Positions 31,966 through 52,040 are shown, numbered from the stretch's first letter. The stretch is 64,000 nucleotides of DNA from a phage (GCA_010671865.1 GCA_010671865.1_4083.1); one strand, 5' to 3'. Notes: a model not told the origin generated them from the letters alone. Made by a program: numbers and translations.

Positions 31966-32056
31966 ATTCGTAATACCCCTTTATCGAAGTCGCTAAGGTT
32001 ACCCGCCCTTTAGCCCCCTACGCATTTTGCCATAGTCCAATCCCTTTTATTTCAAA

Positions 32057-32125
32057 AAAGTCAAGGGATTACCTATGCATTTTTTTAACGCATAATTTTA
32101 AAAACGCCTTGACTTTTTTCTGAAT
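32057..32125. repeat. imperfect nested palindrome at module boundary
   Basis: GTCAAGG...TATGCAtttttttaacGCATA...CCTTGAC followed by T-run; lies between gene 32148..32357 and the family B array. Confidence 0.4.
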
Positions 32126-32147
32126 CAGTACTAGATCCCTTTACGCA

Positions 32148-32357
32148 TTAATCCTTCGTTACGCTAACGATTATCTGTGTATCCCCGTAGTCCTGCCATA
32201 CTTCCACGCCATCGGTCGCCCTGGTTAGTCGTGCTGTCATCTGCTTAATGGTCTTAGGCTTTAGTGGAACCTGTTGCAGTACTGTACGCATAGCATCATT
32301 GACGTTATCATGTACGCCTGCAATAGTACCTAGAACGCTGTATACTGTATAGAACAT
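32148..32357 (-). CDS. hypothetical protein
   Basis: 69-aa ORF; AGGAGGG RBS 7 nt upstream of ATG. Confidence 0.55.
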   Translation of the reverse strand: MFYTVYSVLGTIAGVHDNVNDAMRTVLQQVPLKPKTIKQMTARLTRATDGVEVWQDYGDTQIIVSVTKD

Positions 32358-32425
32358 ATGTATGCCCTCCTGATATAGTTAAGGCCGCTACAAGGCGGCC
32401 TATGATGTTTGGTGATGTGTAACGC

Positions 32426-32827
32426 TTACAGTCCTAAGATAGTGCGTGCTTCGTTACGTTCCGTACACAGCTGCATGATGTGAGCAAGTAAGTCCTTGCT
32501 AATGTATCCGGTGTTCATAGCTTCACGAATAGATACATCATAAGCACCGAACCCCGTGCGAACGATACGCACATCATTCAGGTTAGTATTATAGATACCG
32601 CCGAGATCAACGGCTTCGAATACTACATCAACAGAATATTCATTGTTGCCATCGTGGAAGTTTTCCAGTGCAATAGTATTGGATACCGCCCAACGTTTGC
32701 AGTTTCCAATGATGCGGCACTGTTCCGGTTGGATAGTACCATTACTTACAGCGTACTCCAGTGCATCTTTACCGAAAGTCCGAGCCAGTACTAAAACGTC
32801 AGCGAAGGAATTGATTGAGAAGGTCAT
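32426..32827 (-). CDS. hypothetical protein
   Basis: track ORF 32426..32860 trimmed to Met with AAGGAG RBS; upstream ATG lies inside the leader hairpin. Confidence 0.55.
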   Translation of the reverse strand: MTFSINSFADVLVLARTFGKDALEYAVSNGTIQPEQCRIIGNCKRWAVSNTIALENFHDGNNEYSVDVVFEAVDLGGIYNTNLNDVRIVRTGFGAYDVSIREAMNTGYISKDLLAHIMQLCTERNEARTILGL

Positions 32828-32839
32828 GATAAAACTCCT

Positions 32840-32912
32840 TAATTTAGGAGGGAGAACCATTTCCCCCTCTCTATGTAAAACATTATACTTGATTCTAAGT
32901 ACTATGCAAGTA
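32840..32912 (-). promoter_or_regulatory. promoter plus 5'-leader hairpin cassette
   Basis: minus strand: TTGCAT-16-TATAAT-GTTTTACAT then hairpin GAGGGGGAAATGGTTCTCCCTCC then AAGGAG RBS; approximate. Confidence 0.5.
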
Positions 32913-32916
32913 CTTT

Positions 32917-33249
32917 TTACATTTTAATACCTGGATTCAGGTAGCGGTGAGATCCATATTCTGGATCGGTTTCGGTCCAGTACTGTAAATCGATAGTACC
33001 TTTCGCGTTAATCTTGTCTACCAGCTTATTCATCTTAGTGTATACTACGTCAGCATCGATGCGTTTAAAGCCAGTAGCTTTAGTGAAGTAGTAGTGATTT
33101 GCTTCACTATCATTAAGGATATACCGAGCACCGTTTGCAGTCTGTGCGATAATGATTGAGTATTCTACTTCCCGATCCAGACCGTCGATGAATACAGATG
33201 AAACATTGGTACGGATGAAAGCTTTAACGATAGCGATTGAAGTACTCAT
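32917..33249 (-). CDS. hypothetical protein
   Basis: 110-aa ORF; AGGAG RBS. Confidence 0.55.
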   Translation of the reverse strand: MSTSIAIVKAFIRTNVSSVFIDGLDREVEYSIIIAQTANGARYILNDSEANHYYFTKATGFKRIDADVVYTKMNKLVDKINAKGTIDLQYWTETDPEYGSHRYLNPGIKM

Positions 33250-33332
33250 TTTGAATCTCCTAACTTTGTGGGCCGTCGCACCATTGCCGCCCTACGAGAT
33301 ACATTATTGCAGTACTGATATACTTTGTCAAT
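33250..33332 (-). promoter_or_regulatory. promoter plus leader hairpin cassette
   Basis: minus strand TTGACA-17-AATAAT then GC-rich hairpin before RBS of 32917..33249; approximate. Confidence 0.45.
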
Positions 33333-33453
33333 ACTTTTTTTATTAATAGTTTTCACCCCACCAGCAGATAGTTACTCACCGTTATTAACTATATATTTTA
33401 GATACACTCCTGCACCCAGTGGGCTAGTTTTTGTCTATGCGTATATAATAGCA

Positions 33454-33487
33454 AAGGGACTGACCGGAGTCAATCCCTTTTTTTATT
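33454..33487 (-). terminator. bidirectional intrinsic terminator (repeated element, copy 1)
   Basis: hairpin AAGGGACTGAC-CGGA-GTCAATCCCTT flanked by A-run and T-run; 17 nt downstream of stop of 33496..33696. Confidence 0.55.
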
Positions 33488-33495
33488 CTTTTTTG

Positions 33496-33696
33496 TTAGA
33501 TGATTCTCCAATCTTCTACGATCATGGTAAGATAACGGACCATCGATTCAAGTGATTCGAATTCCCGATAGTCTGCCGCTCCACCAGCGGTACAAGTACA
33601 GCCGATTAAACCATTTTGTAATTCCTTAATCTGTACATCGATAAGGTTGGCTTTAGCTTCTTTCAGTACTTCAACCAGGGCGAGAGCGATAGACAT
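33496..33696 (-). CDS. hypothetical protein
   Basis: 66-aa ORF; GGAG RBS; own promoter cassette. Confidence 0.55.
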   Translation of the reverse strand: MSIALALVEVLKEAKANLIDVQIKELQNGLIGCTCTAGGAADYREFESLESMVRYLTMIVEDWRII

Positions 33697-33699
33697 AAT

Positions 33700-33780
33700 G
33701 TTTTACTCCAAACTATTGGCGGGAGAACTATTCCCCCGCTCTATGTAAAACATTATACATTACTGGTTAGTACTGTCAAA
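33700..33780 (-). promoter_or_regulatory. promoter plus leader hairpin cassette
   Basis: minus strand TTGACA-16-TATAAT-GTTTTACAT, hairpin GAGCGGGGGAATAGTTCTCCCGCC; approximate. Confidence 0.5.
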
Positions 33781-33786
33781 TAGTTT

Positions 33787-34044
33787 TTATGAAATATCTT
33801 CGATGTAGTCGGCCCATTTCATTTTTTCAGTACTGTCAATGGCTACCGGATTATTTGGATCAAACCATTCACCATTACCGCAATACATACCAACGGCTAC
33901 GGTTTTATAGCCATCCTGGGCAGTACACCACGACATTGCACGATAGATATGGCCTTTAACTGGTTGCAGTACTGGTAACGTTTTATGGTCTTCTACGTAG
34001 GCCATAGCTTGAGGATTTACCCGATATTGTGTGAACTGTTCCAT
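33787..34044 (-). CDS. hypothetical protein
   Basis: 85-aa ORF; AAGGGG RBS. Confidence 0.55.
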   Translation of the reverse strand: MEQFTQYRVNPQAMAYVEDHKTLPVLQPVKGHIYRAMSWCTAQDGYKTVAVGMYCGNGEWFDPNNPVAIDSTEKMKWADYIEDIS

Positions 34045-34120
34045 TATGTTTCCCCTTGTAGTTAGTAAAGTTATTACATCAGTACTATCAAGCTATGTCA
34101 ATAGTACTGAAATAAAACTT

Positions 34121-34345
34121 TTAGATTAGATTATTGAGGCCGTCAATGGTAGACTCACTTTCTTCTTTCTCCCATTGTCGGTAGTACTTCCATGCTTCAT
34201 GATAGGTGGCGATTAGTTCATCTTTTTGATCCTGGTTACATGCCAGTACTGAATCACGGTGAGCGGTGTTATAGATAGAATCGAATGATTTCTTCTCTTC
34301 TGCCAGGTTAGCTACTTCCCGCATCAGTTCATCAAAGTTAGCCAT
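34121..34345 (-). CDS. hypothetical protein
   Basis: 74-aa ORF; AAGGAG RBS. Confidence 0.55.
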   Translation of the reverse strand: MANFDELMREVANLAEEKKSFDSIYNTAHRDSVLACNQDQKDELIATYHEAWKYYRQWEKEESESTIDGLNNLI

Positions 34346-34422
34346 TTTATTACTCCTTTTAGTGGGGGAGGATATATCCCCCTATGCAAAACATTATACT
34401 TTGTTTTAGTTATTATGCAAGT
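34346..34422 (-). promoter_or_regulatory. promoter plus leader hairpin cassette
   Basis: minus strand TTGCAT-16-TATAAT-GTTTTGCAT, hairpin GGGGGATATATCCTCCCCC; approximate. Confidence 0.5.
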
Positions 34423-34676
34423 ACTTTTTTCATATAAACATTATATTCTACACCGCCGTAACCTTCCACGATGATATGTTTTGCGTTATCACGTTTGCAC
34501 ATAGTGAAACCATCGTTTACGTGTTTTGCATTTTCCAGGGCGACATCACCGATAGCGGCACATACTGAACTAATAACGATATTCCGCAAAGTACTGGTAT
34601 CATTAGCGGTCATAGTAGTTTGCAGTACTACGTTGTCGTATACGTGTGCATTGATAGTGATTTCGATAGTGTTCAT
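34413..34676 (-). CDS. hypothetical protein
   Basis: track ORF 34413..34730 trimmed to MNTIEIT; the upstream MFYIERGKWFPL is a translation of the promoter/hairpin cassette. Confidence 0.55.
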   Translation of the reverse strand: MNTIEITINAHVYDNVVLQTTMTANDTSTLRNIVISSVCAAIGDVALENAKHVNDGFTMCKRDNAKHIIVEGYGGVEYNVYMKKVLA

Positions 34677-34758
34677 GGTGTATCTCCTGGACTTGAGGGG
34701 AAACCATTTCCCCCTCTCGATATAAAACATTATACGTTAATCTAACTACAATGCAAGT
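34677..34758 (-). promoter_or_regulatory. promoter plus leader hairpin cassette
   Basis: TTGCAT-16-TATAAT-GTTTTATATC, hairpin GGGGAAATGGTTTCCCC; approximate. Confidence 0.5.
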
Positions 34759-34763
34759 ACTTT

Positions 34764-34955
34764 TTAAATTTTATTTCCGATATAGTCCGGCCTATTCTTT
34801 TCGGTCATACGCTTTGCTAATGTTTGCATATAGCTTATCGCGTTTAAGGTGTCTTCCTCCAGGGATGAATCAACATAATCAGGATCATTCTTCACCTTGC
34901 AATGATTATGATAGCGTAGTACTGCCAGTACTTTTTTAACTTCTTCAACTGTCAT
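34764..34955 (-). CDS. hypothetical protein
   Basis: 63-aa ORF; ATGA overlap with upstream gene. Confidence 0.5.
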   Translation of the reverse strand: MTVEEVKKVLAVLRYHNHCKVKNDPDYVDSSLEEDTLNAISYMQTLAKRMTEKNRPDYIGNKI

Positions 34956-35224
34956 AATAAGTATTCCACTTCGTTAGCTTTCAGGTTAGTATCAATCATC
35001 AGTGGTTTTTTGTAGTCCACAAAACGATTAGTTTTCTCGATAGCGAAGCCCATATAATCCAGCTTGCTTACAGTACATTCATTCTTAAAAACTTCTTTCG
35101 CGGCATTGATGGCTGATTCAATTGATAACCGACCATCTAAGTTAATGTTACCAAATGATCCACCAGCAGAAGTAGGATTACCGTTCATATCTTTAATAAT
35201 CATAGTAGCGGAGTAGCTGGACAT
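34952..35224 (-). CDS. hypothetical protein
   Basis: 90-aa ORF; AAGGAAAC RBS. Confidence 0.55.
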   Translation of the reverse strand: MSSYSATMIIKDMNGNPTSAGGSFGNINLDGRLSIESAINAAKEVFKNECTVSKLDYMGFAIEKTNRFVDYKKPLMIDTNLKANEVEYLL

Positions 35225-35308
35225 AATTTTGTTTCCTTTTATTGGTGGGGAGAACTATTCTCCCCCTTGATGTAAACTATTATACAGTACTGATATACTT
35301 TGTCAATA
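35225..35308 (-). promoter_or_regulatory. promoter plus leader hairpin cassette
   Basis: TTGACA-16-TATAAT, hairpin GGGGGAGAATAGTTCTCCCCACC; approximate. Confidence 0.5.
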
Positions 35309-35309
35309 C

Positions 35310-35531
35310 TTAATTACGGATAAAGTGATAAAGACCATTATCATCATTAACGCCCCATACTGATTTACCATTTAAACCAGTGAAGCCGGATTGCAATTCA
35401 ATATGGAAACCGTTAGCATCAACGACGAAAACTTTTTTATTTTCATCCCGATAGCATTGATATTCTTCACCTGCTTTAAATGCTGCATCATTCAGAAGAT
35501 TTGAAGCGTGAACGCAGGTCATAGTAGCCAT
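35310..35531 (-). CDS. hypothetical protein
   Basis: track ORF 35310..35588 trimmed to MATMTCVHAS (AAGGAA RBS); upstream part is cassette read-through. Confidence 0.55.
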   Translation of the reverse strand: MATMTCVHASNLLNDAAFKAGEEYQCYRDENKKVFVVDANGFHIELQSGFTGLNGKSVWGVNDDNGLYHFIRN

Positions 35532-35616
35532 CGTCTTGATTCCTTTTAGTACCAGGGGGAACCATTTCCCCCTCTCGATATAAAACATTATACGCTCATT
35601 GAGATAGTTTGCAAGT
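35532..35616 (-). promoter_or_regulatory. promoter plus leader hairpin cassette
   Basis: TTGCAA-17-TATAAT-GTTTTATATC, hairpin GGGGGAAATGGTTCCCCC; approximate. Confidence 0.5.
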
Positions 35617-35717
35617 ACTTTTTATCAAATAGTTTTCAGTACTGAATACTTATATAATAGATACACTTCCGCACCCTATGGGTCAGTGAGTTATCTCTCA
35701 ATGAATATATAATAGCA

Positions 35718-35748
35718 AAGGGACTGACTGGAGTCAATCCCTTTTTTA
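35718..35748 (-). terminator. bidirectional intrinsic terminator (repeated element, copy 2)
   Basis: hairpin AAGGGACTGACTGGAGTCAATCCCTT plus T-run; just downstream of stop of 35756..36340. Confidence 0.55.
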
Positions 35749-35755
35749 ATCTTTT

Positions 35756-36340
35756 TTATCGTGTTATAGTTATCGCGTTAACATCACGTTTTTTATAGTA
35801 CTGATTCCAGATATTGCGGGTTAAACCGTAATCAAGTACTTTAATCAAGCCGTTGCGATCCTGGCCGATATTCTGTTTTCTGATATCTCTTATCGTTAGT
35901 GTGGATAATGTATCATCAACGTGATTGAGAGCATCAGCGAAATGGTGTTGGCGTTCTACCGTATTACGTTTAATATTGTACTTTAACTCATTGCACGCGT
36001 TTACATGCTTTACACTGCCTTTGCTTGCAGTACTCAAACGATCCATAACAATAAACAGATTATCAGGATCGCATAAATGCATATGCACCTTGGCAAAGAA
36101 CTGTTTAAGGTGCGGACGGTCATAATCTAAAAAATTCCATACCTTACATTCAGTTTCATTTTGTTCTACACCCGCATCACAATTCGCGACCTTAATCACT
36201 AACCGATCATTTAAAGCGAATACAATACGGGAAGAACCCGCACCGACGATCTCCAGTCCAGCTAACCGACAAGCTGAAAGGATCTCTTTGTTGGTTTCCA
36301 TTGCATGAAGTGAACGGATGAATTTAGTATAGTTACGCAT
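35756..36340 (-). CDS. putative protein kinase-like protein
   Basis: trimmed to MRNYTKF (AAGGAG RBS); motifs in canonical order: Gly-rich GAGSSRIVF, VIKV, catalytic-loop-like IRDIRKQN, DFG-like LDYG. Confidence 0.4.
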   Translation of the reverse strand: MRNYTKFIRSLHAMETNKEILSACRLAGLEIVGAGSSRIVFALNDRLVIKVANCDAGVEQNETECKVWNFLDYDRPHLKQFFAKVHMHLCDPDNLFIVMDRLSTASKGSVKHVNACNELKYNIKRNTVERQHHFADALNHVDDTLSTLTIRDIRKQNIGQDRNGLIKVLDYGLTRNIWNQYYKKRDVNAITITR

Positions 36341-36371
36341 TGTGTTGACTCCTTGAGTTAATGAAACTATA

Positions 36372-36614
36372 TTACAGTACTTTACTATCAATGGCAACTA
36401 CTTTTTTTACTTGAACTGCGTGGAATACTTCACGCGTATTTTTAGTACTGAATACTTTTGCCGTACCTTGTTCGACCGCAATACGATATCGACCGTTAAC
36501 GTCCACCATGTTGATAAAGTCCGGTGTACTGAATGGAGTTACCCGGCATTTAAGAACGGTTAACAGTTCCACCAGCGTTGTAGTCTCTTTGATACGTTTT
36601 TCTAAAGTAATCAT
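36372..36614 (-). CDS. hypothetical protein
   Basis: track ORF 36372..36671 trimmed to MITLEKR; upstream MTVLKCFSTMYAYQ is promoter read-through. Confidence 0.5.
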   Translation of the reverse strand: MITLEKRIKETTTLVELLTVLKCRVTPFSTPDFINMVDVNGRYRIAVEQGTAKVFSTKNTREVFHAVQVKKVVAIDSKVL

Positions 36615-36671
36615 TTTGTTTTCCCCGTGTTGGTATGCGTACATAGTACTAAAACATTTGAGTACTGTCAA

Positions 36672-36890
36672 TTAGATAATAGAATATTTCTTTAGTGATA
36701 ATGCGTCTTCTGTCGGTTGATATTCTACACCGTTCCCGTTATCAACCTTAGTGAGTAAACCTTTATCAATGAGTTTTTTGATGGTACGGTTTCCCTGTTG
36801 AAAACTGGTGAAGTGTGAATCATTACGAAAGGTATAACCGTGCTTCACTGCTTCATCAATAGTTTTCTTTTCGATTTTAGATAATTTCAT
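36672..36890 (-). CDS. hypothetical protein
   Basis: track ORF 36672..36950 trimmed to MKLSKIEK; same promoter type as 36372..36614. Confidence 0.5.
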   Translation of the reverse strand: MKLSKIEKKTIDEAVKHGYTFRNDSHFTSFQQGNRTIKKLIDKGLLTKVDNGNGVEYQPTEDALSLKKYSII

Positions 36891-36946
36891 TTTGTTTCTC
36901 TCTCTGTGTTGGTATAGATACATAATACTAAAACAATTGAGTACTG

Positions 36947-37201
36947 TCAACGTGATATTAGTTTTATTTTTTTATTGTATTGTTGGTGTTCATATAGATT
37001 AATTTTTCCAGTACTCTCAATTACTATTCTATTGTTAGTGTCTACATCGATAACACGTAGTTTCCCGTTGCTTAACTTCCTGGGTAATAGACTACCATTA
37101 ATAAACTCATTAGCAAGCTGTACGGCCTTTGTGATGATTCTCTGTGGTGCTTTATAGTGTACCCGCAAGATATTATCTTTAGATAGTTGTACCTTCATCA
37201 T
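36947..37201 (-). CDS. hypothetical protein
   Basis: 84-aa ORF. Confidence 0.5.
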   Translation of the reverse strand: MMKVQLSKDNILRVHYKAPQRIITKAVQLANEFINGSLLPRKLSNGKLRVIDVDTNNRIVIESTGKINLYEHQQYNKKIKLISR

Positions 37202-37214
37202 TTTAGTTTATCCT

Positions 37215-37243
37215 ATAAAAAAAGGCGGGAACTGAACCCGCCG
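37215..37243 (-). terminator. intrinsic terminator
   Basis: minus strand GGCGGGTTCAGTTCCCGCC hairpin followed by TTTTTTT; downstream of 37266..37661. Confidence 0.6.
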
Positions 37244-37265
37244 TGTTGTTAGTACTGCAAAGTTT

Positions 37266-37661
37266 TTAGATAACCTGGCGGCGTTTACTGTATACTGTTA
37301 CACGGTTTCCTTTACGGTCATGACGGATCTCTTTCTGGTTACGAATCAGTTCACTTGGACGCTTAAGGTTTGCCAGGTGATCCGCGTGAGTCCATGCATT
37401 TGCGTTAACTGTAACTTCAATATCAGAACCTTTCAAAAAGTCATCTTGAGCGTTCAGTACTTCAGCCAGTTCTTGAGCTTGCTTTAGTTCTGCTTCAGTA
37501 AGTACAGGCTCAGGTGAATTCACAATATCAGAGATCTCTTTGAACTGTACCGCCCAGCGTTGTCCTTTCGGTGCATCTTTGCCCATGTCTTTAAATGTTT
37601 CACCTTCTTCACGAGCAACGATGCGAGCTTGTTCACGGGTAGCGAAGAATTTAGTAATCAT
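37266..37661 (-). CDS. hypothetical protein (paralog of 49170..49436)
   Basis: track ORF trimmed to MITKFFATREQ; shares FATREQARI...FKDMG...DRKGNRVTVY with 49170..49436. Confidence 0.55.
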   Translation of the reverse strand: MITKFFATREQARIVAREEGETFKDMGKDAPKGQRWAVQFKEISDIVNSPEPVLTEAELKQAQELAEVLNAQDDFLKGSDIEVTVNANAWTHADHLANLKRPSELIRNQKEIRHDRKGNRVTVYSKRRQVI

Positions 37662-37760
37662 GGTGTACATCCTATTAGTTAAGTTAATTAGTACTACAAG
37701 TTAGAGTCTATTATAAAGTACTATCTGGGCAATGTCAAATAGTACTTTAAATGGATTCTA

Positions 37761-38084
37761 TTACATGTCTTTTTTACGTTTTACATCGTAGTAACGAACT
37801 GTAATTTCTTTGTTGATCTCATCCTCAATTCTGTGTAGTACTTTCTCTTTCGGGTTGAAACCTATTACAGTTTCTTTAATGATCTCCAAGCCCGTGTATT
37901 CGCCTTGTGTACCGTAACCGTAAGTAAAGGTTTCATGTCCCAGGTCTTCCCAGCGGTCACCAATCAATGCAGACACGTAGCATGAGTGGTAAGTATTGCC
38001 GTGGCTATCAGTCCACCGATTAACTTTAATGTCAAAGGAAGTTACAATTTTCATTTCTACTTTCTGGGCAAGGATCATAGTCAT
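37761..38084 (-). CDS. hypothetical protein (paralog of 43890..44213)
   Basis: 107-aa ORF; shares RWTDSHGNTYHSC...FTYGY...RKKD with 43890..44213. Confidence 0.6.
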   Translation of the reverse strand: MTMILAQKVEMKIVTSFDIKVNRWTDSHGNTYHSCYVSALIGDRWEDLGHETFTYGYGTQGEYTGLEIIKETVIGFNPKEKVLHRIEDEINKEITVRYYDVKRKKDM

Positions 38085-38170: not shown

Positions 38171-38171
38171 C

Positions 38172-45990: not shown

Positions 45991-46290
45991 TTATAAACAG
46001 TTAATTACTCCGGTGTGCGTTACTTTCTCAGTATCCATAACAGTGACCGAACCGCGTTTAGTACTTGCATCGTAATAAATTGTCGTGCTACCTTTTTCGT
46101 CTTCTTCATGGAACGGCCCGTTTTTAAATGCTTCTGGCTGGATCTCTAAATCCTTTAAAACAATCTCGCCAGTACTTTCATTGGTCATCGCTACAGTGCA
46201 CTGAATGAATTTTTCACTACTTACATCTAACGACGCATTAACAGCGAAAGAGGAAACAGATAAAGCCAGGGCGATGATTGCAACTTTCAT
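45991..46290 (-). CDS. hypothetical secreted/periplasmic protein
   Basis: 99-aa ORF; N-terminal signal-peptide-like MKVAIIALALSVSSFAVNA with A-x-A cleavage context. Confidence 0.5.
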   Translation of the reverse strand: MKVAIIALALSVSSFAVNASLDVSSEKFIQCTVAMTNESTGEIVLKDLEIQPEAFKNGPFHEEDEKGSTTIYYDASTKRGSVTVMDTEKVTHTGVINCL

Positions 46291-46375
46291 TAGTATATCC
46301 TTAGTTACCAGGGGGGAACCGCTCCCCCTTGCGATGTAAAATATTGTACAGTACTAAAAACTAATTGCAAGTACT
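46291..46375 (-). promoter_or_regulatory. promoter plus leader hairpin cassette
   Basis: TTGCAA-16-TGTACAATAT, hairpin GGGGGAGCGGTTCCCCCC then TGGTAACTAAGGA RBS; approximate. Confidence 0.45.
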
Positions 46376-46612
46376 TTATGATTTTTTATAAAACATTTCG
46401 GCAGTGATATTTTTACCCGTTGGTTGTACTTTATCCAGAATTTTTTGATGCCCTGGCCGTCCAAATGAATATGATCCGTAAACCGTAAACCAGTAGTTAC
46501 CCTCAGTGTTTACATGTACAGCACAATAGGGAACGCCCCGCGATTCATCACTAGTAAAGTGTGCTACCGTTCCCGTTACATTCGAAGACGTTGATTTGAT
46601 TTGTTCGACCAT
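46376..46612 (-). CDS. hypothetical protein
   Basis: 78-aa ORF. Confidence 0.55.
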   Translation of the reverse strand: MVEQIKSTSSNVTGTVAHFTSDESRGVPYCAVHVNTEGNYWFTVYGSYSFGRPGHQKILDKVQPTGKNITAEMFYKKS

Positions 46613-46720
46613 TTTCTTATTCCTTAGTTACCAGGGGAACCGCTCCCCCTATGCAAAACATTATACGCGTTTAAAAACTAATTGCAAGTATTTTAATAAA
46701 AAGTATTTGAAAAATAATTG

Positions 46721-46749
46721 TTGACAAGTGCATCCAGTACTGGCATAAT
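46721..46749 (+). promoter_or_regulatory. candidate plus-strand promoter (antisense or small-RNA transcript)
   Basis: TTGACA-17 nt-CATAAT on plus strand in a minus-strand gene region; a palindromic hairpin lies ~80 nt downstream. Confidence 0.4.
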
Positions 46750-46819
46750 TACTACATCAAGACGAAACAGTCACTAACCCACCGGGTGCCGAGATCCGTC
46801 TATTAAATGATTCAGTACT

Positions 46820-46848
46820 GAAAAAAGAAAGGGGATCAATTGATCCCC
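46820..46848. terminator. bidirectional terminator (perfect palindrome)
   Basis: GGGGATCAATTGATCCCC flanked by A-run and T-rich run; downstream of minus gene 46855..47076. Confidence 0.55.
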
Positions 46849-46854
46849 TCGTTG

Positions 46855-47076
46855 TTATTTTGTAAGGTATAAACAGAAGTCACCTTTATTTGCTACGCCG
46901 CCAGTGTAACGCGAGGAATAGTTAGAAACGTCCTGGACTTCTGCTATTACCAGGGTATCATCATTCAATTCGTCGCAGAAGCAAACGGCTGGATCTTGTA
47001 CGCCGATTTTGTCGGCATGTTCCCGCATAGATTTAACCAGTGCTTCCAGTTGGGAAAGAGTAGTGATATTAGCCAT
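46855..47076 (-). CDS. hypothetical protein
   Basis: track ORF trimmed to MANITTL (GAGGAAA RBS). Confidence 0.55.
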   Translation of the reverse strand: MANITTLSQLEALVKSMREHADKIGVQDPAVCFCDELNDDTLVIAEVQDVSNYSSRYTGGVANKGDFCLYLTK

Positions 47077-47160
47077 TTTATTTTCCTCATTACCAGGGAG
47101 AACCATTTCTCCCTTGATGTAAACTATTATACAGTACTGAAAACTAATTGCAAGTACTTT
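47077..47160 (-). promoter_or_regulatory. promoter plus leader hairpin cassette
   Basis: TTGCAA-16-TATAAT, hairpin GGGAGAAATGGTTCTCCC then TGGTAATGAGGAAA RBS; approximate. Confidence 0.5.
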
Positions 47161-47161
47161 T

Positions 47162-47422
47162 TCAATATTGTTTGTCGTCGTCTTCCTCGATGAATTGACC
47201 GACGAAATGATCTACTTTCGCTTTGAGGCTTTTATAATCTTCTTCTACTTCCGTTAAACGTTCCTGGTAGTATTCCAGTGCCTCAAGATACGCCGCCTCA
47301 GCAGTTTTTGCACGCATAGCTAAATTCATTCCACGCGTTTCATCAAATAGCCAATAACCATCGGTGCAATGACTGATAGATAATGACTTGCTTAGTACTG
47401 TATAGTTAATTACTTTACTCAT
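47162..47422 (-). CDS. hypothetical protein
   Basis: track ORF trimmed to MSKVINY; upstream part reads through the leader hairpin. Confidence 0.5.
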   Translation of the reverse strand: MSKVINYTVLSKSLSISHCTDGYWLFDETRGMNLAMRAKTAEAAYLEALEYYQERLTEVEEDYKSLKAKVDHFVGQFIEEDDDKQY

Positions 47423-47480
47423 TAGATAAACCCTCAATAAAGGCGGGAACCATTCCCCGCCATTGTTACAGTACTGAATA

Positions 47481-47720
47481 TTACATTCCAACCATTGCAG
47501 CACGGATCGCAGTAGTGCTATACTTAAAGCCGTCCGGCGTTGTAGTAGTACCGTTGGCTTTTAATCTGCGGTACATGCATTCCGCTGCAATATCTTTAGT
47601 TCTACTTTGTGCGATACAACTTTGTGCAAGCCGATACAATGACTCACCGTTATTAATCCATAAGGAAACATTCCAATGAGTTTTGTTTTTGTGCCCGTTG
47701 TAAGTTTTAGTACTAGCCAT
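47481..47720 (-). CDS. hypothetical protein (mosaic paralog of 49523..49762)
   Basis: 79-aa ORF; conserved GHKNKTHWNVSLWINN and TPDGFKYSTTAIRAAMVGM termini, divergent centre. Confidence 0.6.
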   Translation of the reverse strand: MASTKTYNGHKNKTHWNVSLWINNGESLYRLAQSCIAQSRTKDIAAECMYRRLKANGTTTTPDGFKYSTTAIRAAMVGM

Positions 47721-47812
47721 TTTTTTTAATCCTCGTTTGAGCGGGGAACCATTCCCCGCCTCGATATAAAGTATTATACGCTTTTAAACTTAGTTTGCAA
47801 GTACTTTTTAAA

Positions 47813-48424
47813 TTAATATTCGATTGATTCTACTACACCATCAATGACATTGAATTGATATTCGTTACCCTCAATCAGTGCCGTAATGTTTTCAGTAGTG
47901 AATTGATCCTCATATGCATTCTCTAAATCACGGTACAACTTGCGGGATAATTCACGAATAGTTTCAGTGAGTAGTTCCTCAAGCTCATTAACTAACGTTT
48001 CTTGTTTTGCGGTTAAATCAGTGTAAGCCGATTCAATGTACCCGCTTACAGTATTCTCATGCGAGTAGTGGGAGTGAGAACGCTTTACACTCATCGGCAA
48101 ATCATCTTCATTCAGCAGGTGACGGATTGAGCGATACTTAGTTAATGCTCTTACCTTGCGTAAAAACTTCACTGCGTCAACGTGGTCAGTACTGATTGAT
48201 GCACCGTCACCCTGGGACCAAAAACCACTGAATTGTATTTCAGCGTCATTAATGCCATATTCCGGCAATACTGTTTCTTTATAGTGTTCAATTTCACTTT
48301 CAGAAAAATAATCGTCGTTTGAGTTTTTTTCACGTTCCCGAACTAGTTCGATAGCTGACGTTTTTTGTTCTGCGTTCAATTCAGAAAAAGCCATAACATA
48401 AGTAGTAGTAGTGATAGTTTTCAT
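47813..48424 (-). CDS. hypothetical protein
   Basis: 203-aa ORF; GAGGG RBS; long leader with tandem promoters. Confidence 0.55.
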   Translation of the reverse strand: MKTITTTTYVMAFSELNAEQKTSAIELVREREKNSNDDYFSESEIEHYKETVLPEYGINDAEIQFSGFWSQGDGASISTDHVDAVKFLRKVRALTKYRSIRHLLNEDDLPMSVKRSHSHYSHENTVSGYIESAYTDLTAKQETLVNELEELLTETIRELSRKLYRDLENAYEDQFTTENITALIEGNEYQFNVIDGVVESIEY

Positions 48425-48647
48425 TTTGTAACCCTCATTCAGTAGTTTATGTAAGTATTATACGCTTTTAAAAACAATTGTCAAACTATTTTATCAGGGG
48501 AGTTTTTCGTGTGCCTTACTCCTGGGCTACTTAACGGGAAGTTACTTATTTCGTTCCCCGTCCTGATGTAAAACATTATACGCCTTTAAACATAGTTTGC
48601 AAGTACTTTTTAAAAATAGTTTTCAGTACTGAATAGTAAAAAAAAGT

Positions 48648-48676
48648 ATTGACAGCATTATCAAGTACTGGCATAA
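48648..48676 (+). promoter_or_regulatory. candidate plus-strand promoter
   Basis: TTGACA-17 nt-CATAAT on plus strand; same AGTACTGGCATAAT core as 46721..46749. Confidence 0.4.
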
Positions 48677-48851
48677 TATACCCCATGACAACAGCTAACC
48701 CACCGGGTGCACAATTGTAACTATACTAAACTACTTTTTCTATAGATACACTCCCGCACCCTATGGGCTACGGCTTATCTGCCAATGAATACATTATGCC
48801 AGTACTGACAAAATAAGTCAATACCGGCAATTGTAAAGATTTGTAAACTGC

Positions 48852-49082
48852 TTATACTGCAATCGCGTCCAGGCTATAATAATAATAAGTGCCGTATTGG
48901 TGTACTTTATTACCTTTTATTTCAGTACTGAATGAATCCGAACGGTTTGCATATGATGTTAATTTAAAGTACTTTGATTTGCTGATACGTTGCCATACAC
49001 CGCAGATCCGCTGTAAGTAAGTAGTTTTATTCGTGGTAGTATCTTTTACGGTTTTAACTTCAGTCATATACATATTAGTCAT
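48852..49082 (-). CDS. hypothetical protein
   Basis: 76-aa ORF. Confidence 0.5.
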   Translation of the reverse strand: MTNMYMTEVKTVKDTTTNKTTYLQRICGVWQRISKSKYFKLTSYANRSDSFSTEIKGNKVHQYGTYYYYSLDAIAV

Positions 49083-49169
49083 TTTTATTACTCCAGGTTA
49101 TAGGCGGGAAGTGTTCCCGCTCTCGATGTAAAACATTATACGCCATTAAACATAGTTTGCAAGTACTTT

Positions 49170-49436
49170 TTATTCAAGTACTGCAATCTTTTTAGTACGG
49201 TACACGGTCACGCGGTTGCCCTTTCGGTCGAGCTTTATTTCTACCACTCGACGCGATACACTATCGGGACTTTTTAACGCCGCTAACCAGTACTGTAATG
49301 ATCTGGCGGTACTACGCTTTACAATGGCCCAACGTTCACCACTTGCCGATCCCGCTCCCATATCTTTAAACGTTGCCCCGTCCTGGCGTGCGGCGATCCG
49401 AGCTTGTTCACGCGTCGCAAAATACTTAATATTCAT
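49170..49436 (-). CDS. hypothetical protein (paralog of 37266..37661)
   Basis: track ORF trimmed to MNIKYFATREQ; shares FATREQARI...FKDMG...DRKGNRVTVY. Confidence 0.55.
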   Translation of the reverse strand: MNIKYFATREQARIAARQDGATFKDMGAGSASGERWAIVKRSTARSLQYWLAALKSPDSVSRRVVEIKLDRKGNRVTVYRTKKIAVLE

Positions 49437-49522
49437 GCTGTTACCCTTATCGTTGGTGTATGAATAAAACACTATTATAAAGTACTATCGCAAAAAAATG
49501 ATAGTACTTTAAATAAATTCTA

Positions 49523-49762
49523 TTACATTCCAACCATCGCCGCACGGATCGCAGTAGTGCTATATTTGAATCCGTCCGGTGTTTTATCTTGTCCAGTCTG
49601 TTCTAAAAATAGCATCATATGACGGGCCGCATCATTGCGATTTGTGCTATCGTTAATAAAGTCCTGGGCCAACCGGTATAATGATTCATCGTTATTAATC
49701 CAAAGGCTTACATTCCAATGAGTTTTGTTTTTGTGACCTAAGAACATTTTTGATTTAGCCAT
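49523..49762 (-). CDS. hypothetical protein (mosaic paralog of 47481..47720)
   Basis: 79-aa ORF; identical C-terminal 19 aa and conserved N-terminal block. Confidence 0.6.
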   Translation of the reverse strand: MAKSKMFLGHKNKTHWNVSLWINNDESLYRLAQDFINDSTNRNDAARHMMLFLEQTGQDKTPDGFKYSTTAIRAAMVGM

Positions 49763-49857
49763 TTTTTTTTAATCCTCTTATATAGTGGGGAACTATTCCC
49801 CACCTGATAGAAAGTATTATACGCCTTTAAACTTACTTTGCAAGTACTTTATTAAAC

Positions 49858-50220
49858 TTATTCGTAAATCTTGCCACTGTCAGCCCATACCAGGAAACGA
49901 GGCATATTATCCCATGCATCTTGTTTTAAGTTTAAGCCGTGCAATACTTCTGTACTTTCCATTCCTGGTACTGGCTTGCTATACACTGCAAACATTTCGC
50001 CCATGTACTGATAAGCCATCGTTAAATCAGTCTGGATCATCTTATGGATCATTGCATCCAGCATTGCAGTAGCGGCGTACTGTTCACGCTTAAGCGGCAA
50101 CATTGCAATAAGTTCCCGATAAGCTGAAATGTGAATTTTTACCGTTTCTGCCGGAAGATCTTTCATCTCGTCGCGGAAGTTAACCAGGTTAGCAATAATT
50201 TTATTGATTTGAGTCGCCAT
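49858..50220 (-). CDS. hypothetical protein
   Basis: track ORF trimmed to MATQINK; upstream MFYIESG is promoter/hairpin read-through. Confidence 0.55.
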   Translation of the reverse strand: MATQINKIIANLVNFRDEMKDLPAETVKIHISAYRELIAMLPLKREQYAATAMLDAMIHKMIQTDLTMAYQYMGEMFAVYSKPVPGMESTEVLHGLNLKQDAWDNMPRFLVWADSGKIYE

Positions 50221-50300
50221 CGTTTTAATCTCTCTTAATGTGTAGCGGGAAGTGTTCCCGCTCTCGATGTAAAACATTATACGCTTTTAAACATAGTTTG
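50221..50300 (-). promoter_or_regulatory. promoter plus leader hairpin cassette
   Basis: TTGCAA-16-TATAAT-GTTTTACATC, hairpin GAGCGGGAACACTTCCCGC; approximate. Confidence 0.5.
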
Positions 50301-50557
50301 CAAGTACTTTCTACATGTACTTTTAAAATAGTTTTCTTTCTATATAGGAGTACTATTATTCAGTACTACCAACAACCAGGGGAACTATCTTTCAGTACTG
50401 AATCAACCAAATCACTACTACACCCCATAAAACGGCCTCAGACGCATTCTAACGCATTAATACACCTAAGCTATACATTTGCACCGCCACCAGCTAACCA
50501 GGGCTTTACAGACCGTTTAAACGCGTTAAATTATTTTCAATTATTTTGTTTTTAGCT

Positions 50558-50586
50558 ATTGACTCAGTACTAAAAAAGCGTATAAT
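50558..50586 (+). promoter_or_regulatory. candidate plus-strand promoter
   Basis: TTGACT-17 nt-TATAAT; downstream transcript start resembles that after 46721..46749 (TACTACAT-GACG-GA-AG...CCGAGATCCGTC). Confidence 0.4.
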
Positions 50587-51022
50587 TACTACATAGACGC
50601 GAGAAAGCGGATACCCCAGGGGGTGCCGAGATCCGTCCAAAATTCATAAAATTTAAAAAGAATACACTCCCGCACCCTAGCAGGTCAACGCACTTTCTCA
50701 GTACTGAATTATAGTACCATAGTACGGCCCAGGATAGCAAGCAAATTAATTAAAACTTTTTTCATCCAGGGTATTGCTTTATTTTTCCAGTACTGTATAA
50801 TAGTTCCATCAAGTCGAGAAAGACTCCAGCCCACCGGGTGCATAGTTACGCCCAAAATTCAGTACTGAAAAAATTTTTAAAAATATCCGTCCAGGCCGTT
50901 GACATTGCCCCCAGTTTATAAGATAATGATTCCAGATTCAGAAAAATCTAACTCCAGATACTGCGGGGAAACTATCCCCACGCGGTAGGGGAACTATTGG
51001 AAAAAACAAAATAAAATTTTGA

Positions 51023-51097
51023 TTTAGCCGTTTAGCCGTCCAAACGTCTAGCCATCCAGAAATCTAGCCGTTTAGCCGTCTAGATGGATAGCCATCT
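51023..51097. repeat. tandem octamer direct repeats (iteron-like), unit yTAGCCrT
   Basis: TTAGCCGT TTAGCCGT CCAAACGT CTAGCCAT CCAGAAAT CTAGCCGT TTAGCCGT CTAGATGG ATAGCCAT in strict 8-bp register. Confidence 0.6.
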
Positions 51098-51722
51098 TTA
51101 CTTCCAGACTTCTGGAGGGCTAGACATATCTACGTCCAAAATCCATCCAGGGTAACTACGCCCAAAATCCGTCAGTACTATACCATAGATCTATCTTTTG
51201 AAAGGGAGTATTCAGTACTGCCATCATAGCCCTCACTATGTTACCCTAGGAGGATGAAGACTATCATGTAGTACTGAATACTGTTAGAGGGAACCCACCA
51301 GCACAAGCTGGTGGCATAATGATTTAGATTAAAATCAGTACTGACACCATTCTGTTAATATCAGTACTGTTATTACGATTTTCATATGAGGTTCAAAAAG
51401 ATGTACCACCACAGGAGGAACTATCTTTTCTGTACTGTCTCACGACAGGAGGTAGAGTAAATGAATTGTTCGCAGCAACTCATCACCCTATGTAGAACAT
51501 TATACAGTACTGAATCATAATGTCAATAGCTTTCTTTCATTATTCAGTACTGATATTCTTGAGAACTACCCGACTACAAACATCATTATATCCCACAAAT
51601 CATAAACGTCCCAACGTAAATTTCAACTTTCGAAGATCCAACTTTTATTTCATAGGTACTCCAAAATTTTTAGGATCGAGATTTAGGATGGAGTACTAAC
51701 CAACTTTTTGCTGGAGCCTCAA

Positions 51723-51743
51723 GGGGTAATGGAATTTTACCCC
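51723..51743. repeat. hairpin GGGGTAA-tggaatt-TTACCCC followed by GGGTAA repeats
   Basis: 7-bp perfect inverted repeat; GGGTAAAGGGGTAATTGAAATT downstream. Confidence 0.45.
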
Positions 51744-51949
51744 GAAGGGTAAAGGGGTAATTGAAATTAAGGTGAAAGTAATAATTCAGTACTAATCATT
51801 GCGTGATTACTTTTGATTACATTTGATGTAATTTGCAAAATGGAAAAGGAGCTTGGAAACTACAAAGTACGGCAGACTTCCTCTGCCTACTTAGTGGCAT
51901 ATCAGTACTGCTACGTTCTTGATTAAACGTGAACATTCCTGTACTCTAG

Positions 51950-52040
51950 TACTCACTACTGTTCACTACTGATCACTACAGTGATTATAAATGATTACTT
52001 AAATGTTTATATATGATTACTTATGACTACCTATGATTAC
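51950..52040. repeat. tandem short direct repeats (CACTACTG x3 and ATGATTAC x4)
   Basis: cACTACTGttCACTACTGatCACTACagtg then ATGATTACttaaatgtttatatATGATTACttATGAcTACctATGATTAC. Confidence 0.55.

Follow-up and report, generated by a model that had tools for sequence, protein, structure and literature searches.

HIP1 (GCGATCGC) of cyanobacteria is a short palindrome that is many-fold over-represented throughout the genome, in coding and non-coding DNA alike. It occurs about once per kb or more densely, lies in genes regardless of frame and is reportedly associated with methyltransferases. Chi (GCTGGTGG), DNA uptake sequences and KOPS are also kept at a high and fairly even density by DNA-level selection, and their density tells one genome from another, but these signals are asymmetric, oriented and enriched in the cell's own genome. 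A palindromic word is likewise found in the binding sequence of SlmA (reportedly GTGAGTACTCAC in E. coli), a protein that occurs in Enterobacterales and allied orders. Restriction-site avoidance in phage genomes is recognized by the same class of palindrome word statistics. In addition, T4-type phages contain PeSLs (promoter-early plus stem-loop), i.e., repeated sigma70 promoters with an AT-rich upstream region and a G/C stem-loop, associated with ORFans (PMC2839356, PMC4122927).

Here, we describe the palindrome AGTACT in a 64,000-nucleotide stretch of phage DNA (the window), which derives from an Asteriusvirus-type jumbo coliphage. A preliminary description had drawn attention to AGTACT between 32000 and 52000, and this interval is the phage's direct terminal repeat (DTR) of about 19.9 kb. 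By blastn against the 375-kb relative fEgEco12, window position 51891 corresponds to record position 1 and position 31995, approximately, to record position 20993; the DTR of fEgEco12 comprises 20,993 bp, as shown by PhageTerm and restriction digests (PMC13070987). The site field and the terminal features are as follows:

1..64000, unstranded: AGTACT site field, 258 sites, 55 of them as CAGTACTG; 171 in genes and 86 between genes.
31995..51891, genes on the minus strand: DTR, present as a single collapsed copy, delimited by blastn to fEgEco12.
50278..51891, unstranded: terminal non-coding region beside the physical genome end, 17 AGTACT (0.56 expected), mostly TTCAGTACTGAA-like.

AGTACT is the commonest hexamer of the window, and the expectation from dinucleotide shuffles is 19.8 ± 4.7, an observed/expected ratio that is not near 1; for CAGTACTG, 0.75 copies are expected. 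The enrichment proposed for 32000-52000 is real and far larger than first described, with 133 AGTACT versus 6.2-6.4 expected (sd 2.4, maximum 14) and 32 CAGTACTG versus 0.24; 58 of these AGTACT sites are coding and 75 are intergenic or at gene edges. When coding and intergenic DNA of the window are counted separately, both are enriched (171 versus 15-17 and 86 versus about 4, respectively), and AGTACT does recur through the non-coding region at 50-52 kb, as had been stated. Describing AGTACT as a promoter-spacer and intergenic motif of 32-52 kb is nevertheless too narrow, because it is a genome-wide word and about two thirds of the window sites are coding. In fEgEco12, it is again the top hexamer (1,115 versus about 117 expected; 977 versus 111 in the unique genome, where CAGTACTG is the top octamer), and roughly 90% of the sites genome-wide are intragenic. 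The runner-up palindrome is enriched only 1.7-fold.

The phage as a whole has about 3 sites per kb. This density rises to about 7 per kb within the terminal repeat, whereas 50 kb of host DNA sampled for comparison has about 0.06 per kb. The local peak in the DTR coincides with the interval noted at the outset. Coding and intergenic densities are equal in the core genome (2.4 versus 2.8 per kb), and the intergenic excess is specific to the DTR, where about 4-5 sites per kb are found in coding and 10-12 per kb in intergenic DNA.

Like HIP1, AGTACT is therefore a palindrome that is many-fold over-represented across a whole genome, and it also exceeds what protein sequence and codon usage account for, in all frames. 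The coding sites of the window are distributed over the three frames as 64/39/69, and the 172 observed sites compare with 58 ± 6 after synonymous-codon shuffling and 24 ± 5 after codon-order shuffling. Genome-wide, 409 of 782 Ser-Thr dipeptides (52%) are written AGT-ACT, while 120 are expected; in the other two frames, A-GTA-CTN is used in 268 of 753 cases (74 expected) and xAG-TAC-Txx in 147 of 370 (28 expected). Genes on either strand show the enrichment, and the sites are accordingly selected at the DNA level. AGTACT differs from HIP1 in the word itself, in belonging to a virus rather than a cell and in the lack of an encoded matching methyltransferase. It also stands alongside an extreme purge of palindromes, is common to two unrelated virus families and shows an additional promoter-associated layer and polar variant islands. 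The purge leaves 25 hexamer palindromes at zero in the same genome in which AGTACT is about 9-fold enriched, which is the opposite of what restriction-site avoidance does to a palindrome. A published description of AGTACT enrichment was not found in the literature.

Between the window and fEgEco12, 202 of 234 AGTACT sites are conserved, as against the 151 predicted by how often control hexamers are retained in these alignment blocks. Seven of eight unrelated control words deviated from expectation by no more than about 2.5 sites, and the eighth, ATGCAT, was 4.6 above. Judged from this alignment, individual AGTACT sites are under purifying selection. The base at position -1 is C in a fraction of 0.46 and G in 0.08, with the mirror image at +1, and G is disfavoured at -1 in all four phage genera. 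The flanks are thus symmetric, the extended consensus is ttCAGTACTGaa, and TCAGTACTGA occurs 55 times versus 0.5 expected. Against this conservation, two thirds of the AGTACT sites in core genes have moved across genera, and it is therefore the density of sites, more than their position, that is selected. In the 290-kb core, the sites are spread a little more evenly than by chance (CV 0.89), and no gap exceeds 1,976 bp. The DTR has an excess of paired sites separated by 20-24 bp, and neither LexA-like nor TrpR-like spacings between AGTACT sites were seen.

Two blocks of the window, which the preliminary description did not mention, are devoid of AGTACT:

16356..24053, minus strand: island 1, about 20 Asteriusvirus-specific genes; zero AGTACT, 0 of 44 coding opportunities used.
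26833..31928, minus strand: island 2, belonging to a tandem array in which 24 paralogous genes of about 75 aa are lined up; zero AGTACT, 0 of 25 opportunities used.

Island 1 contains 41 one-base variants in a single orientation (41:0), TGTACT on the plus strand and hence cAGTACAg on the sense strand; 37 of the AGTACA copies are within called genes, in all three frames. The pattern is repeated in fEgEco12, where AGTACA between 25 and 60 kb has a sense:antisense ratio of 100:18. Island 2 shows a weaker variant with the opposite polarity (11 AGTACA on the plus strand versus 1.4 expected). Because both islands escape completely (0 of 69 opportunities in the same genome), a uniform mutational drive is excluded.

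The promoter-associated layer was observed in the DTR. Here, cassettes recur in which a near-consensus sigma70 promoter is preceded by A-rich DNA and followed by a GGGG...CCCC stem-loop and a small ORFan gene. These cassettes are of the same kind as the PeSLs and share their defining features, but the stem-loop follows the promoter and the order of elements thus differs from published PeSLs. No AGTACT element has been reported in PeSLs, and the 2010 paper does not contain the string GTAC at all (PMC2839356). Moreover, PeSLs cannot account for the roughly nine tenths of sites that lie within genes. Examples of the promoters and the hairpins with site-containing arms are:

50276..50308, minus strand: register A promoter, AAAGTAC-TTGCAA-N16-TATAAT, with AGTACT at 50303-50308, its last T being the first base of the -35.
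35279..35306, minus strand: register B promoter, TTGACA-N9-CAGTACTG-TATAAT, with AGTACT at 35286-35291 abutting the -10.
33752..33779, minus strand: register C promoter, TTGAC-AGTACT, with AGTACT at 33769-33774.
60234..60252, plus strand: hairpin GCCAGTAC-AGA-GTACTGGC, after an RCC1-like paralog.
61444-61462 and 63924-63942: sister hairpins of the latter, GCCAGTAC-N3-GTACTGGC.
51336-51369: the only hairpin with CAGTACTG arms inside 32000-52000.

The gene strand of the DTR has 39 strong sigma70-like promoters, of which 29 contain AGTACT between -45 and +6 of the -10 hexamer. The claim that most promoter spacers carry the word accordingly applies to most promoters, but to three registers rather than to the spacer alone. 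In 10 promoters AGTACT abuts the -35 (AAAAAGTAC followed by TTGCAA; register A), in 16 it abuts the -10, as AGTACTG-TATAAT or as AGTACTGG followed by CATAAT (register B), and in 4 it overlaps the 3' end of the -35 (register C); taken over all registers, the offsets from the start of the -10 have the values -27, -17/-18 and -7/-8. A palindrome that overlaps the -35 or the spacer of so many promoters in three registers fits an operator rather than an RNA polymerase contact, and the fixed registers could partly result from duplication of promoter cassettes instead of independent selection. AGTACT was also considered as a sigma70 promoter element and rejected, because it occurs in three registers, is two thirds intragenic and has equal intergenic and coding densities in the core genome. 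The placement in terminator stems holds for the three hairpins at 60234, 61444 and 63924, but these are outside the flagged interval.

AGTACT enrichment is retained in phages of four genera that infect Escherichia, Klebsiella, Cronobacter and Yersinia (8-fold in RaK2, 18-fold in GAP32 and 16-fold in fEHe-Yen9-04, i.e., fHe-Yen9-04). It is absent in the Pseudomonas-infecting relative PA5oct (3 versus 14 expected), in T5 (7 versus 7.4), in the coliphage DCP80 (5 versus 7.3) or in a 50-kb sample of E. coli K-12 (3 versus 4.8). An unrelated family of temperate siphoviruses of about 33 kb, present as Leclercia prophages, also has AGTACT as its top hexamer, with the same flanks: there are 86-100 copies per 22 kb (14-fold) and none in the host DNA next to the prophage, 66% of the sites have C at -1, and AGT-ACT encodes 101 of the 166 Ser-Thr pairs. 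The use of the same word by an unrelated enterobacterial virus family argues that something reads AGTACT. Except for a lysozyme domain, no proteins common to the two families were detectable. Hence, either a reader encoded by both kinds of phage has diverged beyond detection, or the reader is a host protein. True Chi is enriched as well (24 in fEgEco12 versus 1.7 expected, 10 of them co-oriented in the DTR), and Chi is co-oriented 4:0 and 3:0 at the Leclercia prophage loci; thus, both lineages adapt to host DNA-processing signals. AGTACT itself is unlike Chi-type signals in being palindromic and in being enriched in the virus but not in the sampled host DNA, and only the AGTACA of island 1 is polar.

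We consider that there is about an even chance that AGTACT is the positively selected recognition site of a sequence-specific double-stranded DNA-binding protein acting as a symmetric dimer. Among the three readings proposed initially, a protein site fits best, given the palindrome with its symmetric flanks, the selection in all frames, the conservation and the operator-like overlap with DTR promoters, while modification has been weakened and recombination has found no support. The putative reader could be encoded by phage or host with roughly equal likelihood. None of the annotated 'regulators' of fEgEco12 has a Pfam hit and no candidate reader was found among them; likewise, no host protein with a known site matching AGTACT and its flanks could be named. 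The SlmA box, a 12-bp palindrome with the identical central hexamer, was rejected because its defining flanks are disfavoured: the full box with GTGAG half-sites, GTGAGTACTCAC, occurs 0 times and G is the rarest base at -1 (8%); GAGTACTC occurs 6 times versus 3.3 expected.

A possible but on balance doubtful variant is that AGTACT protects the phage DNA or labels it as 'self' because a nuclease, translocase or defence system of the enterobacterial host recognizes it, comparable to Chi and RecBCD, and that unrelated phages have converged on this word; DNA with dense sites would then be spared or favoured. It overlaps with the dimer-site reading and differs only in the identity of the reader and the effect of binding. 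The identical motif and flanks in two lineages that share only a lysozyme domain, the lack of enrichment in PA5oct, the co-oriented Chi of both lineages and the polar variant of island 1, which looks like an oriented signal, would all suit a host reader. On the other hand, the sampled host DNA is not enriched, in contrast to Chi in E. coli, and the coliphages T5 and DCP80 lack the enrichment. We know of no enterobacterial protein with this site: SlmA is at odds in its flanks, and spacings of the LexA or TrpR kind were not seen.

That a methyltransferase or another DNA-modifying enzyme acts at AGTACT and that sites are kept for an epigenetic function appears unlikely. Hexamer palindromes are typical methyltransferase targets, and HIP1 is reportedly associated with methyltransferases. 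RaK2 DNA has been reported to be methylated and to carry m5CpG (PMC3622015). Yet a scan of fEgEco12 for adenine and cytosine methyltransferase signatures (xPPY; PCQ plus ENV) retrieved only two Pfam-confirmed ORFs, a 174-aa protein of the phage-Dam family PF05869 and a 286-aa C5 enzyme with the DNMT3A/B catalytic domains as best solved relatives, and neither specificity class suits a motif without GATC or CpG. Furthermore, C>T and G>A are not in excess among the lost sites, where they make up 7 of 34 single changes, and targets of modification systems are usually avoided rather than enriched. It is quite improbable that AGTACT is a signal for a nuclease that cuts both strands at the palindrome, nicks one strand at the AGTACA half-site and thereby serves recombination-dependent replication or gene shuffling. 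This would agree with the reliance of T4-type phages on recombination-primed replication, and one-strand nicks would arise in the half-site islands. It would also agree with the frequency of AGTACT in PeSL-like cassettes, as PeSLs mediate shuffling in T4-type phages (PMC2839356). However, in a crude comparison of BLAST block ends between the window and fEgEco12, homology breakpoints are no nearer to AGTACT than random positions (median 52 versus 68 bp, P 0.11; 15% versus 14% within 15 bp). Cutting a genome at about 1,100 sites would also be hazardous, and fEgEco12 virion DNA gives clean restriction patterns as predicted in silico, in digests that did not include ScaI (PMC13070987). An RNA-level or neutral origin, by CAGUACUG transcript stems, codon usage, mutation bias or duplication of cassettes and paralogs, is very improbable. 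The word is self-complementary and the region is rich in paralogous promoter cassettes and gene families, but both codon shuffles remain far below the observed counts, core coding and intergenic enrichment are equal, genes on either strand are enriched, and the two islands escape. Unrelated viruses also use the identical word, although any palindrome would serve RNA pairing.

If AGTACT is the site of a dimeric protein, the phage would have written it at nearly every place that its encoded proteins tolerate, and its function would probably depend on site density. The bound putative protein may mark, coat or protect the DNA of the phage and so set it apart from that of the host. Within the terminal repeat, sites are located on the -35 or in the spacer next to the -10 of strong, host-type early promoters; because of this overlap, the same putative protein would act there as an operator-bound repressor, and early genes would be shut off as it accumulates. 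Binding by a symmetric dimer leaves one feature unexplained, namely that the strand-polarised, half-mutated AGTACA fully replaces AGTACT in island 1.

More tentatively, and with less than an even chance, CAGTACTG may be a virus-side 'self' code for phages of Enterobacteriaceae, with a putative reader that discriminates DNA by the density of the palindrome. The reader would then belong to the host, as an enzyme or a defence system, or it would be a protein of the jumbo phage that resident prophages have evolved to mimic. Unrelated viruses would have independently recoded over half of their permissive codon pairs, and the polarised AGTACA islands would mark regions in which only one direction or strand of recognition is wanted.

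AGTACT is the commonest single hexamer of the window, with 258 copies against 19.8 ± 4.7 expected from shuffled sequence. Within 32000-52000, where the preliminary description had judged the palindrome pervasive by eye, 133 copies were counted against about 6.3 expected (sd 2.4, maximum 14), and the octamer CAGTACTG occurs 55 times in the window (0.75 expected) and 32 times in this interval (0.24 expected). When the two are counted separately, with genes assigned by a simple greedy model (157 genes, 82% coding), coding DNA holds 171 sites against 15-17 expected and intergenic DNA 86 against about 4. The initial observation is borne out by these counts and reaches much further: in the entire genome of fEgEco12, a 375-kb relative, AGTACT is the top hexamer (1,115 copies against 117 expected) and CAGTACTG the top octamer. 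A composition artefact is ruled out, because Markov models of orders 0-2 expect only 20-50 sites in the window; at orders above 2, the expectations are contaminated by the sub-words of AGTACT itself.

Sequence matches place the source of the window among the Asteriusvirus-type jumbo coliphages of the PBECO4/121Q/G17 group; phage CRJP21 is the best megablast match to 32-52 kb (~94% identity). Direct terminal repeats (DTRs) of about 20-21 kb are described for published relatives, with 20,668 bp in Sharanji and 20,993 bp in fEgEco12, the latter confirmed by PhageTerm and restriction digests (PMC13070987). In the alignment of the window with fEgEco12, position 1 of the fEgEco12 record, which is the physical left end, falls at window 51,891 and the inner DTR boundary (20,993) at about 31,995. 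The interval 32,000-52,000 is thus the DTR, of which the window contains a single collapsed copy, and the window past 52,000 matches the unique right end of the fEgEco12 genome. The small DTR genes lie on the minus strand, and scans of the window detected no tRNA gene and no Rfam match. With 32000-52000 as megablast query, 13 Campylobacter phage records as well as Acinetobacter and Erwinia records also match the DTR.

Landmarks of the window
16356-24053: island 1, free of AGTACT
25786-31928: tandem array of 24 paralogous genes (~66-96 aa, about 75 aa), abutting the inner DTR boundary
26833-31928: island 2, free of AGTACT
51022-51109: 8-bp periodic array (TAGCCGTN / GTTTAGCC / GTCTAGCC, ~7-11 units), ~800 bp from the physical genome end, which may be a binding array for a terminase or replication protein
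51804-52040: TGATTAC-type repeats with a 10-bp period, across the DTR boundary
52.1-56.5 kb: second paralog array, ~60-aa products
56.6-64 kb: five RCC1-like paralogs, ~400 aa

Along fEgEco12, the DTR and the neighbouring right-end region carry 6-8 AGTACT per kb, and the remainder carries 2-3 per kb throughout, structural and replication genes included. In the core (60-345 kb), coding and intergenic DNA carry 2.37 and 2.84 sites per kb, and in the DTR 4.9 and 10.3. There are therefore two layers, one uniform across the genome and an extra one in the DTR, chiefly between genes. The original emphasis on promoters and intergenic DNA at 32-52 kb captured the DTR promoter layer, but the motif is not confined there, as sites occur genome-wide and mostly in genes.

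The association with promoters was confirmed for 29 of the 39 strong sigma70-like promoters on the DTR gene strand, many of which are perfect TTGACA-16-TATAAT. Three registers were observed:

Abutting the -35 element: AAAAAGTAC joined to TTGCAA, 10 cases
Abutting the -10 element: AGTACTG joined to TATAAT, or AGTACTGG joined to CATAAT, 16 cases
Over the end of the -35 element: TTGAC joined to AGTACT, 4 cases

Because the registers differ, AGTACT is no contact element for RNA polymerase; it lies over core promoter elements in the manner of an operator, and some DTR promoters carry two sites ~20 bp apart. A promoter-only motif is ruled out by the location of most sites in genes and by a core intergenic density close to the coding density. 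The DTR promoters belong to repeated cassettes, similar to the PeSL cassettes of T4-type phages, in which an A-rich upstream region and the promoter are followed by a GGGGAGAA...TTCTCCCC stem-loop, and cassette duplication may be behind part of the regularity of the registers. Terminator stems with the motif, also mentioned in the preliminary description, do exist (GCCAGTAC-N3-GTACTGGC), but are limited to three places downstream of RCC1-like paralogs (60234, 61444 and 63924). Its remark on the non-coding region at 50-52 kb proved accurate, with 17 AGTACT in the terminal 1.6 kb (50278-51891) against 0.56 expected.

The DTR contains further elements. A third promoter type, without AGTACT, has its -35 TTGACT within the stem of a 12-bp hairpin (AAAGGGATTGACTCCGGTCAGTCCCTTT), followed by GCTATTAT, and is a terminator and a promoter overlapping in one element. 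True Chi (GCTGGTGG) is ~14-fold enriched in fEgEco12 (24 against 1.7 expected), ten co-oriented copies lie in the DTR (window 33358-51314), and a hairpin with Chi on both arms (CCACCAGCacaaGCTGGTGG) is located ~590 bp from the physical end.

Third-type promoters and Chi positions in the DTR
33453-33480, minus strand: third-type promoter
35717-35744, minus strand: third-type promoter
39020-39047, minus strand: third-type promoter
42296-42323, minus strand: third-type promoter
33358, 33581, 35160, 36569, 38952, 40220, 40933, 45123, 50487, 51295: CCACCAGC
51307: GCTGGTGG

Coding sites of the window occupy all three frames (64/39/69), where they encode Ser-Thr, x-Tyr-x or x-Val-Leu. The 172 sites in window genes compare with 58 ± 6 after a within-gene synonymous-codon shuffle and with 24 ± 5 after a codon-order shuffle, and since both lie far below the observed count, a codon-usage artefact is ruled out. 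The enrichment acts at the DNA level. Genome-wide, AGTACT is chosen at roughly 35-50% of the positions that the protein permits:

Ser-Thr as AGT-ACT: 409/782, 120 expected from codon usage
x-Val-Leu as A GTA CTN: 268/753, 74 expected
[KEQ]-Tyr-x as xAG TAC Txx: 147/370, 28 expected

Between the window and fEgEco12, AGTACT is kept at 202 of 234 sites, against 151.2 predicted by control hexamers from the same blocks of the alignment, a difference of ~7 standard deviations by our own arithmetic. Seven of eight unrelated control words fall within ~2.5 sites of expectation (ATGCAT lies 4.6 above), and AAGTAC and GTACTT, which overlap the motif, also exceed it. In core genes of RaK2 and fEgEco12, which are 71% identical in nucleotide sequence, just 22 of 66 sites coincide in position, a number not above that of A-rich control words; site density is nonetheless held, with 66 and 62 sites in 31 kb. 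Selection therefore keeps the sites in the short term and their density in the long term. Spacing in the 290-kb core is slightly over-even (CV 0.89), and by our calculation a maximum gap as small as the observed 1,976 bp has P ~0.003 under a Poisson process of the same density. The flanks are symmetric, with C at 0.46 and G at 0.08 at position -1, mirrored at +1, and the rule that -1 is not G is true in four of four genera examined. Further out, TTC...GAA is the most frequent context; TCAGTACTGA is present in 55 copies where 0.5 would be expected. The resulting 12-bp palindrome ttCAGTACTGaa is of the kind expected for a protein that would contact double-stranded DNA as a symmetric dimer.

In the two islands, none of the coding opportunities is used (0/44 in island 1, 0/25 in island 2), against 35-61% in every other segment. 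Island 1 instead contains TGTACT 41 times on the plus strand (3.6 expected) and AGTACA never, so that the sense strand reads AGTACA, with the usual motif flanks (cAGTACAg). Of these copies, 37 lie in genes (frames 15/13/9), and 22 of the 37 cannot derive synonymously from AGTACT. Paralogy as their source is ruled out by the spread over all frames and many genes. Island 2, which sits within the array of 24 paralogous ~75-aa genes, shows a weaker variant of opposite polarity (11 against 1.4 expected), to which paralogy may contribute. The independently sequenced fEgEco12 has the same pattern, with 100 sense and 18 antisense variants at 25-60 kb, and the islands are therefore biological and not a sequencing artefact. 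A foreign origin of island 1 is without support, as its genes are confined to Asteriusvirus; the slurp01 counterpart of one of its proteins is 98.7% identical. No such islands were found in GAP32 and fHe-Yen9-04. In the baseplate hub genes of RaK2 (L009:1-5000, minus strand), TGTACT occurs 11 times on the plus strand, i.e., sense AGTACA, beside 7 AGTACT, and polar-variant patches may thus exist in other genera too. The strictly polar half-site version of the palindrome in island 1 is the main observation outside a simple symmetric-dimer model.

The enrichment extends across several genera of jumbo phages, and PA5oct, a more distant relative, is depleted rather than enriched in the sampled region.

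AGTACT in phages and host, observed and expected
RaK2 (Klebsiella), structural/replication genes: 80, 10
GAP32 (Cronobacter), genome sample: 253, 13.8
fHe-Yen9-04 (Yersinia), genome sample: 215, 13.6
PA5oct (Pseudomonas), sample 100-150 kb: 3, 14.3
T5, genome sample: 7, 7.4
E. coli K-12, 50 kb: 3, 4.8

The three K-12 sites are at ordinary intragenic positions. Other palindromes are subject to an extreme purge. GCGC is absent from the window and from the 354-kb unique fEgEco12 genome (~215 expected), and 25 hexamer palindromes are at exactly zero in fEgEco12, including CCATGG (50 expected), TGGCCA (46), GCATGC (44), CTGCAG (43) and GGTACC (36); CAGCTG occurs once (43 expected). GCGC is also at zero in the RaK2, GAP32 and Yen9-04 samples and normal in PA5oct (47 against 49).

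A search of viral contigs for closely spaced CAGTACTG pairs returned jumbo-phage contigs and a large set of ~31-35 kb contigs (GC ~0.42) with 4-7 AGTACT per kb. The latter have nothing in common with fEgEco12 beyond a lysozyme domain (blastx; phmmer E<1e-3). Their gene set includes a portal of their own, a protease-capsid fusion, a siphovirus tail module, a large serine integrase and HNH endonucleases, and integrated copies at 97% identity were found in Leclercia chromosomes. These contigs represent temperate siphoviruses in complete form, which rules out jumbo-phage fragments or satellites. Thirty-two clustered loci form one family (302 kb in total, 4.2 sites per kb) that is apparently not previously described and matched nothing in the GenBank phage collection by megablast.

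Members of the family
L135: Leclercia MAG NZ_DAIQCE010000001.1, 1614321-1636501
L136: L. tamurae H6S3
About 30 IMG/VR loci, e.g., L061, L109, L111

No hexamer is more frequent than AGTACT in the two Leclercia loci (86 and 100 copies per 22 kb, ~14x), position -1 is C in 66% and G in 5% of sites, and 101 of 166 Ser-Thr pairs are written AGT-ACT (18 expected). The count drops to zero at the border with host DNA. AGTACT is not enriched in phage DCP80, which has the nearest GenBank relative of the J-like protein of this family. The same iterated palindrome is therefore present in two unrelated virus lineages of Enterobacteriaceae. The family also shows a similar palindrome purge, and the Leclercia loci have co-oriented Chi (4:0 and 3:0). 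A stricter three-copy scan of viral contigs revealed mostly local clusters and no further large motif-dense lineage. Two unrelated IMG/VR contigs carry tandem CAGTACTG at a fixed spacing of 54 or 81 bp (L048:3435-3631, L146:2042-2346), probably local repeat or operator arrays, and their overall AGTACT density of ~0.9 per kb is modest but well above expectation.

Several explanations for such a motif can be weighed. A modification target, one of the options raised initially, is weakened by the methyltransferases present. Scanning fEgEco12 for adenine- and cytosine-methyltransferase signature motifs identified two Pfam-confirmed ORFs, a 174-aa Dam-family protein (PF05869) and a 286-aa C5 enzyme (L006:29943-30803), and neither fits AGTACT, which contains no GATC and no CpG. 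The best solved relatives of the C5 enzyme are the mammalian DNMT3A/3B catalytic domains (E ~1e-23, full length), with bacterial enzymes as more distant matches, and m5CpG reported for RaK2 is consistent with it. A drive by deamination or very-short-patch-type repair is ruled out by the site losses between the window and fEgEco12, in which C>T and G>A changes are not over-represented, and is also contradicted by the enrichment of the neighbours AGTATT and AATACT and by the two untouched islands; a uniform mutational drive is excluded by the polar half-sites. The suggestion of a recombination signal found no support, as homology breakpoints are no nearer to AGTACT than chance (median 52 against 68 bp, P 0.11; 15% against 14% within 15 bp). 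An SlmA box is ruled out by its flanks, and LexA-like and TrpR-like arrangements by the absence of the expected spacings.

Among the initial options, a protein-binding site agrees best with the sequence features. AGTACT would be the selected recognition site of a putative dimeric DNA-binding protein, encoded by phage or host, the function of which would rest on how densely the sites cover the genome, and the same sites in the DTR would double as an operator on early promoters. We consider this the most likely reading as a whole and hold it with middling confidence. The same word and flanks in an unrelated temperate family of the same host family point to one reader for both, which may be a system of the host. 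No reader gene common to both virus families was found by blastx and phmmer, and the sharing could reflect a host reader, a diverged common reader gene or one virus mimicking the marking of the other.

The papers on CBB/GAP32, RaK2, PA5oct, phAPEC6, Sharanji and fEgEco12 describe RpoD-like, TGAAACG-type and ATAAATA promoters and methyltransferases, and do not mention AGTACT. No literature linking the motif to jumbo phages was found in a search that left most subscription journals outside its scope, so this absence is no proof. Among published systems, the HIP1 palindrome of cyanobacteria comes closest. Unlike HIP1, AGTACT is found in viruses, has no cognate encoded methyltransferase, occurs alongside an extreme avoidance of palindromes, arose in phages unrelated to each other, and is accompanied by a promoter-associated layer and polar variant islands.

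In a viral genome where about 25 hexamer palindromes have fallen to zero, more than half of the Ser-Thr codon pairs are nevertheless given to AGTACT, which indicates a strong unexplained selection. To our knowledge, no such AGTACT reader is known. The motif provides a simple, testable diagnostic. Knowing the reader could uncover a novel means of marking, protecting, organising or regulating phage DNA. RaK2-like jumbo phages are in use as therapy candidates, and the reader would also provide a way into early-gene shut-off in this group.
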